Positions 2-976 of a DNA stretch of 64,000 nucleotides are shown one piece after another. The number at the start of each line of letters is the position of its first letter. Within the stretch, counting starts at the first letter, position 1. The stretch lies in NCBI RefSeq assembly GCF_030013595.1, contig NZ_CP122768.1; one strand, written 5' to 3'. The notes under the pieces were generated by a model. It was not told where the DNA came from, did not search any database, and saw nothing but the letters and a program-made list of their open reading frames with translations. Source of the DNA: Escherichia coli. GTDB taxonomy: Bacteria > Pseudomonadota > Gammaproteobacteria > Enterobacterales > Enterobacteriaceae. Both the position numbers and the translations under genes were made by a program.

Positions 2-976
2 GTGGACAAAGCACAGGGCAACCCGCTCACCCAGCGAATTCGCGGCGTGCGGCAGGTGATTTCTGACGGCAACGGCGTGCTGCTGCCGGAGATCCGCATT
101 CGGGAAAACTTCCGCCTCAAGCCCAGCCAGTACGCCATATTCATCAACGGCATTAAGGCCGATGAAGCGGATATTCCGGCGGATAAACTGATGGCGCTGC
201 CCTCCAGCGAAACCTACGGCGAGATAGAAGGCGTGCTGGGGAACGACCCGGCGTACGGGATGCCGGTCACCTGGATCCAGCCCGCGCAGAAGGCGAAGGC
301 GCTGAATATGGGGTATCAGGTGATCGACAGCGCCAGCGTGATTGCCACCCATGTGAACAAGATTGTGCGCAGCTATATTCCTGATTTGTTTAACTATGAC
401 GACATCACGCAGTTACACAATCGCCTGTCATCGATGGCACCACGGCTGGCGGAAGATTTGAGCGCGGCACTCAATTACAGCCAGTTGTTGAAAGTGTACC
501 GGGCGCTGCTGACCGAAGGCGTTTCCCTGCGCGATATTGTCACCATCGCCACCGTGCTGGTCGCCAGTAGCACAGTGACCAAAGATCATATCCTGCTGGC
601 GGCCGATGTGCGCCTGGCATTGCGGCGCAGCATTACCCATCCGTTCGTTCGCAAGCAGGAGCTGGCGGTGTATACGCTGAATAATGAACTGGAAAATCTG
701 CTGACCAACGTGGTGAATCAGGCGCAACAGGGCGGGAAAGTGATGCTCGACAGCGTGCCGGTCGATCCGAATATGCTCAACCAGTTCCAGAGTACGATGC
801 CGCAGGTAAAAGAGCAGATGAAAGCGGCGGGGAAAGACCCGGTGCTGCTGGTGCCGCCGCAGTTGCGTCCTTTGCTGGCGCGTTATGCAAGGTTGTTTGC
901 GCCGGGGCTGCATGTGCTGTCGTATAACGAAGTGCCGGACGAGCTGGAGTTGAAGATTATGGGGGCGTTGAGTTGA
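2..976 (+). CDS. lfhA: FlhA-like flagellar export protein, C-terminal part (Flag-2 remnant); the ORF is open to the window start, so the 5' part is outside the window
   Basis: The ORF track protein resembles the FlhA C-terminal cytoplasmic domain. It sits next to yafL, as lfhA does in E. coli. Confidence 0.6.
   Translation: MDKAQGNPLTQRIRGVRQVISDGNGVLLPEIRIRENFRLKPSQYAIFINGIKADEADIPADKLMALPSSETYGEIEGVLGNDPAYGMPVTWIQPAQKAKALNMGYQVIDSASVIATHVNKIVRSYIPDLFNYDDITQLHNRLSSMAPRLAEDLSAALNYSQLLKVYRALLTEGVSLRDIVTIATVLVASSTVTKDHILLAADVRLALRRSITHPFVRKQELAVYTLNNELENLLTNVVNQAQQGGKVMLDSVPVDPNMLNQFQSTMPQVKEQMKAAGKDPVLLVPPQLRPLLARYARLFAPGLHVLSYNEVPDELELKIMGALS

Follow-up and report, generated by a model that had tools for sequence, protein, structure and literature searches.

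The left edge of the 64,000-nucleotide stretch of Escherichia coli DNA that we analyzed (the window; contig NZ_CP122768.1, assembly GCF_030013595.1) most probably holds the 3′ end of an intact lfhA, the export gate gene of the Flag-2 lateral-type flagellar locus; it is not the primary flhA gene that its PGAP label suggests, nor, in all likelihood, a K-12-style relic. We put the probability that the source strain carries full-length lfhA and an intact cluster, not a relic, at about 0.92. The claim of intactness is drawn from sequence comparison with sibling assemblies, because the coding sequence before residue 374 lies outside the window. The features on which the argument turns are the following (window coordinates):

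2 to 976, plus strand: the 3′ 975 nt of lfhA, encoding residues 374 to 697 (324 amino acids [aa]) and the TGA stop; the full-length gene is seen in complete genome HCP5S3_I2 (L001) and in contig L004.
227 to 229, plus strand: codon GAA (E449); base 229 is a strain-specific single-nucleotide polymorphism (SNP), A here and C (giving D449) in HCP5S3_I2.
245 to 349, plus strand: chaperone-docking dimple codons, assigned by alignment: D455 (245 to 247), Y458 (254 to 256), and T489 (347 to 349).
977 to 1073, no strand assigned: lfhA-yafL spacer, 97 nt, with two small hairpins at ∼984 to 1000 and 1007 to 1030.
1074 to 1823, minus strand: yafL (C40/NlpC-P60 peptidase), the first core-chromosome gene at the lfhA end of Flag-2.

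The plus-strand frame is open from the left edge of the window to a TGA stop at 974 to 976. Its 324-aa product matched the Pfam FHIPEP family with an E value of 2.9e-72 (244.6 bits; cutoff, 29.1) over profile positions 346 to 656 of 657, that is, the C-terminal half only; the presence of an flhA-family gene at the window edge is real and far beyond chance. Among NCBIfam models, the fragment scored higher against FlhA (TIGR01398; 232 bits) than against the SctV/HrcV models (≤124.6 bits), with a TIGR01398 score that falls below the cutoff because the protein is partial. The full-length protein of L001 reached 808 bits against FHIPEP, its residues 26 to 688 covering profile positions 1 to 656, and scored 773.3 bits against TIGR01398 (cutoff, 772.1) versus 582.8 bits against hrcV (cutoff, 692.25). 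By these scores, the predicted product belongs to the flagellar subtype (FlhA), not to the injectisome proteins. Alignment to Salmonella and E. coli FlhA, using published domain limits (PMC5916509), indicated that cytoplasmic domains D2, D3, and D4 are complete in the fragment and that most of D1 is included; the transmembrane domain and FlhA_L linker fall upstream of the window, where L004 and L001 both carry an N-terminal polytopic membrane domain and linker. A GTG start at position 2, present in the list of open reading frames, was rejected as a window-edge artifact: the closest genomes have the true start codon 1,118 nt farther upstream.

The gene is identified as lfhA of the Flag-2 locus, on sequence grounds, because of its locus context, its divergence from K-12 FlhA, and its affinity to a lateral-flagellar structure. 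In the closest genome, the full-length protein is 45% identical to K-12 FlhA. The best PDB match of the visible domain was 7AMY (E = 9e-107 over residues 373 to 695), which is the lateral-flagellar FlhA of Vibrio parahaemolyticus (PMC8213127); Salmonella FlhA_C structures matched with E values of ∼1e-43. Downstream genes run in the order yafL, dpaA, yafJ, lpcA/gmhA, and fadE, with yafL beginning 98 nt past the lfhA stop, and megablast placed window positions 1 to 4000 beside the same five genes in 5,424 of 5,426 complete E. coli genomes. In K-12, this site lies at ∼5 min on the map and holds lfhA and lafU pseudogenes; having yafL as a neighbor thus assigns the locus to the ∼5-min site and not to the flhBAE operon. 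Primary flhA, which lies elsewhere, in flhBAE beside cheZYB, exists as a gene of its own in 5,386 of the 5,426 genomes.

Aligning K-12 to the intact locus gave the endpoints of its deletion: codons 1 to 127 of lfhA are lost, and a lafU fragment is fused directly to codon 128, the join falling at 3 bp of microhomology (ATC); ∼38.4 kb is missing in all. This breakpoint falls outside the window, 737 nt upstream of its first base. The 975 nt of lfhA that the window shows are thus common to intact and deleted loci and do not tell the two apart; calls of Flag-2 status at this locus need sequence that extends at least 737 nt further upstream than the window does. Window positions 1 to 976 align with the K-12 fragment without gaps, with 48 nucleotide and 6 amino acid differences. 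Of the 5,426 complete E. coli genomes, 1,290 (24%) retain lfhB and the 5′ portion of lfhA, the part missing from K-12, and 4,086 (75%) have the K-12 scar in one piece. This split matches the published figures: in the survey of De Maayer et al. (2020), 24 of 100 E. coli strains had flag-2 and the other 76 had truncated copies (PMC6993521). As for the K-12 fragment (L003, 8359 to 10071), it is promoterless but still one open frame; it keeps 1,713 nt (571 codons), over which it shows 75 nucleotide but only 10 amino acid differences from intact lfhA, a mostly synonymous divergence despite its pseudogene status.

Only two complete genomes were ≥99% identical to window positions 1 to 4000: HCP5S3_I2, from pig feces, and a near-identical sister assembly. 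In HCP5S3_I2, lfhA is full length (697 aa) and the cluster is annotated all the way from lafU to lfhA; within the first 5.4 kb this genome and the window differ at 3 SNPs, and elsewhere they are 99.9% identical, apart from the region of ISCro1 and the type VI secretion system (T6SS). We rejected HCP5S3_I2 as the window's own locus because of these SNPs (3 across the first 9 kb) and an ISCro1-associated loss of ∼27 kb of T6SS sequence. To trace the lineage, we built the predicted full-length LfhA with E449 and looked it up as an exact sequence; it was found in public assemblies. One of these, contig NODR01000012.1 (L004; GCA_002517595.1), matches window positions 1 to 9195 with a single mismatch, located 4 nt from the contig end; it has the SNPs at 229, 2062, and 4484 and ends 118 nt into the window's ISCro1 junction. 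By these markers, L004 comes either from the window's strain or from a clonal sibling, and it carries a 697-aa lfhA with lfhB, lfiR, lfiQ, lfiP, lfiN, lfiM, lafK, lfiE, lfiF, lfiG, lfiH, and lfiI upstream.

We walked upstream by looking up rare alleles of FliF, the EcoRII-like enzyme, FlgF, and LafW. Two other alleles were discarded: FlgI was too common (713 blocks) and led to other lineages, and the FliD allele of L001 gave the HCP5S3_I2 sublineage, not that of the window. The L004 FliF allele yielded contig DBKRDT010000032.1 (L010), which is 100% identical to window positions 1 to 3027 and has 1 mismatch to L004 in 14.1 kb. L010, L011, and L023 represent one contig, running from yafJ to lafB/fliD: it includes lfiJ, a CTP-transferase-like gene, a GT2 glycosyltransferase gene, lfgN, lfgM, and a pair of EcoRII-like and Dcm-like genes, and past this pair lfgA to lfgL, lafW, lafZ, and lafA, extending into lafB/fliD. 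The last 11.5 kb of the walk (lafB to lafU) came from a different assembly, L027, which over 14.3 kb differs from L023 by one mismatch and one indel; it supplies lafB to the gene for a 307-aa LafU, followed by dinB. The dinB end of the cluster was seen in L001, L021, and L027. When all L001 coding sequences were compared with L004, L010, L011, L023, and L027 by tblastn, the 39 conserved Flag-2 genes (39 of 39; set as defined in PMC6993521) and the cargo genes were covered at 100%, free of gaps and stop codons. Two sublineages, ∼0.1% apart, both keep the 39 conserved genes open. Within the cluster, lfhA is the last gene of an lfiMNPQR-lfhBA operon, with a 17-nt lfhB/lfhA overlap in L001.

The only broken gene in the cluster is the accessory gene lafV, which encodes a FliB-like flagellin lysine-N-methylase: a T is gained in a run of Ts at codon ∼256 of 310 (∼18481 in L010; ∼28688 in L001), and the lesion is common to both sublineages. 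The EcoRII-like endonuclease and Dcm-like methyltransferase genes are inserted between lfgA and lfgM (L001, 24187 to 26904; also in L010 and L011), an insertion that may uncouple lfgMN from the lfgA promoter; the pair is absent from six other Flag-2-positive lineages (L015 to L020). At the position of LafW, L001 encodes a 325-aa protein (12947 to 13924) that PGAP labels "flagellar biosynthesis protein FlhF"; it has no Pfam hit on record, and the FlhF name looks unreliable.

Two other explanations of the fragment have to be weighed. That it might be the C terminus of the primary Flag-1 flhA in the flhBAE operon would agree with its PGAP label, simply "flhA: flagellar biosynthesis protein FlhA," and with the passing score against the FlhA equivalog model, but we give this reading a negligible chance: it is already refuted by context and divergence, since identity to K-12 FlhA is only 45%, the flanks are yafL/dpaA/fadE rather than flhE/yecT or flhB/cheZ, a distinct flhA exists in nearly every genome surveyed, and sibling contigs have lfhB, lfiRQPNM, and the σ54 activator gene lafK upstream. 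A K-12-type relic, in which the fragment would belong to a promoterless, 5′-truncated lfhA pseudogene left by the ∼38-kb lfhA-lafU deletion, has more behind it a priori: it is the commonest state in the species, both by our count of one-piece scars and by the 76 truncated copies per 100 strains in the published survey, and the 571 codons retained in K-12 mean that window positions 2 to 976 would look much alike in either state. We nevertheless regard a relic as very improbable. The window and the K-12 fragment are 48 nucleotides apart, the identical or near-identical assemblies all have full-length lfhA and the cluster, and HCP5S3_I2, one of the only two complete genomes this close to the window, is Flag-2 positive. 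L004, with the three SNPs and the IS junction of the window, carries full-length lfhA, and the lafU-lfhA fusion junction is absent from L004, L010, and L001, in all three of which the 5′ end of lfhA is intact.

The original prediction, made from the window alone, had assigned this FlhA-like gene to the Flag-2 lateral locus, and the locus and the 7AMY affinity bear this out; the low identity and different chromosomal context also dispose of its caveat that the gene might be the primary flhA of a full flagellar operon. It was likewise right that intactness is undecidable from the window, and the upstream check that it proposed, run in sibling contigs, turned up full-length lfhA and neighboring Flag-2 genes. 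Its description of the locus as a cryptic Flag-2 remnant does not hold for this lineage, given the 697-aa lfhA and upstream operon of L004 and the 39 open conserved genes of the sublineage. A private lesion may still lie upstream in the source strain, because the IS elements of the lineage are active and because Flag-2 is broken after lfgK in another assembly with the same FlgF allele (L024; GCA_012651895.1). There (L024, 15470 to 20738), the cluster is joined to mntR/mntS and to sulfatase, Ail/Lom-family (ompX-like), EamA-family (rhtA-like), and ferritin-like (dps-like) genes; this break is either a rearrangement or an assembly join.

If lfhA is intact, LfhA would serve as the FlhA/SctV-class subunit of Flag-2's own type III export gate. 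Homology to FlhA suggests that its N-terminal membrane domain forms part of the proton-driven export channel and that its cytoplasmic domain, to judge from 7AMY and Salmonella FlhA_C, assembles into a nonameric ring under the gate. In known FlhA proteins, the ring binds FlgN-, FliS-, and FliT-type chaperones with hook-associated proteins, cap, and flagellin (PMC5916509; PMC8213127), and the roles of the dimple residues have been described (PMC5916509). D455, Y458, and T489 of LfhA align with D456, F459, and T490 of Salmonella FlhA; the change of F459 to Y458 is conservative, and V. parahaemolyticus lateral FlhA likewise has DPAY at this site. The dimple between D1 and D2 of the putative LfhA ring would dock LfgN with LfgK/LfgL, LafC/FliS with the flagellin LafA, and a chaperone with LafB/FliD, and such docking would allow late flagellar parts to be exported in order.

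Within the reading of an intact cluster, we consider it about as likely as not that the genes are whole but silent, the system being not expressed or not used for motility. ST131 strain EC958, which has an intact cluster and lfgC, gave no LafA signal on Western blots and, at 28 and at 37°C, lacked detectable Flag-2 motility (PMC4637896), and Flag-2 of strain 042 was judged inactive (PMC6993521); the EC958 result, the frameshifted lafV of the lineage, and the restriction-modification pair that may part lfgMN from the lfgA promoter all favor silence. Against it, 39 conserved genes are open across two sublineages differing by ∼0.1%, the chaperone-docking residues are kept, and a working flag-2 system is known in Plesiomonas shigelloides (PMC6993521); in addition, the absence of expression was tested in only a few laboratory conditions and in another lineage. 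Because none of the 39 conserved genes is disrupted, lfgC included (in contrast to 042), it is conceivable, albeit unlikely, that the pig-associated lineage might build working lateral flagella during surface or viscous growth or upon LafK induction. If so, E. coli Flag-2 might be shown to function for the first time in this lineage, whose isolates include GCA_002517595.1 and GCA_053634795.1; lineages with every conserved gene open are, in any case, reasonable starting material for testing that function.

Downstream of lfhA, the 97-nt spacer showed no canonical terminator, and its fold is not significant (z = −1.3); the window has a single copy of its GC-rich hairpin motif. Farther along, a SymE-family toxin-like ORF lies at 8540 to 8773 on the plus strand, and the ISCro1 insertion truncates the 5′ end of a small hypothetical gene on the minus strand (8820 to 9077). 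ISCro1 (IS66 family) occupies 9078 to 11715, where HCP5S3_I2 has ∼27 kb more of a T6SS cluster, including Rhs, VgrG, tssM, tssL, tssK, tssJ, hcp, tae4/tai4, and tssC; the remaining T6SS genes (11774 to 25869) are rearranged around IS copies. Because of this missing portion and rearrangement, the T6SS of the window's strain is probably disabled.

All the features that we saw at lfhA and Flag-2 have already been described, and our reading carries little significance beyond correct annotation. The E. coli Flag-2 locus of strain 042 was reportedly described by Ren et al. in 2005. In the later survey, flag-2 comprises three clusters with 39 conserved genes, LafV and glycosyltransferases occupy variable region 1 (VR1), and the EcoRII/Dcm cargo was already reported in 21 Escherichia strains (PMC6993521). 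The lineage described here shares with that locus the dinB-yafL site, the lfiMNPQR-lfhBA operon, the 39-gene complement in three clusters, the VR1 cargo (GT2 glycosyltransferase and LafV), and the EcoRII/Dcm cargo (PMC6993521). The differences are at the allele level only: lafV is frameshifted here, and lfgC, for which an inactivating frameshift was reported in 042 (PMC6993521; PMC4637896), is open.

The K-12 lfhA pseudogene (fhiA, b0229) is DNA orthologous to window positions 1 to 976, but its surroundings differ: the lfhA-yafL spacer of K-12 spans ∼0.9 kb and contains rayT (a REP-associated transposase gene), and the toxin-antitoxin pair dinJ-yafQ separates yafL from dpaA, whereas the window lacks rayT and, at 1833 to 2123, dinJ-yafQ. 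Primary FlhA of E. coli and Salmonella (flhBAE; PDB 3A5I and others) is of the same family as LfhA, with the same architecture, docking dimple, and ring-forming cytoplasmic domain, but differs in sequence (45% identity), locus, and regulon. The closest solved relative of the visible domain is the lateral FlhA of V. parahaemolyticus (7AMY), with which it has the DPAY dimple motif in common. The V. parahaemolyticus lateral system is a demonstrated functional swarming system, in a genus other than that of E. coli. Its FlhA forms a nonameric cytoplasmic ring (PMC8213127).
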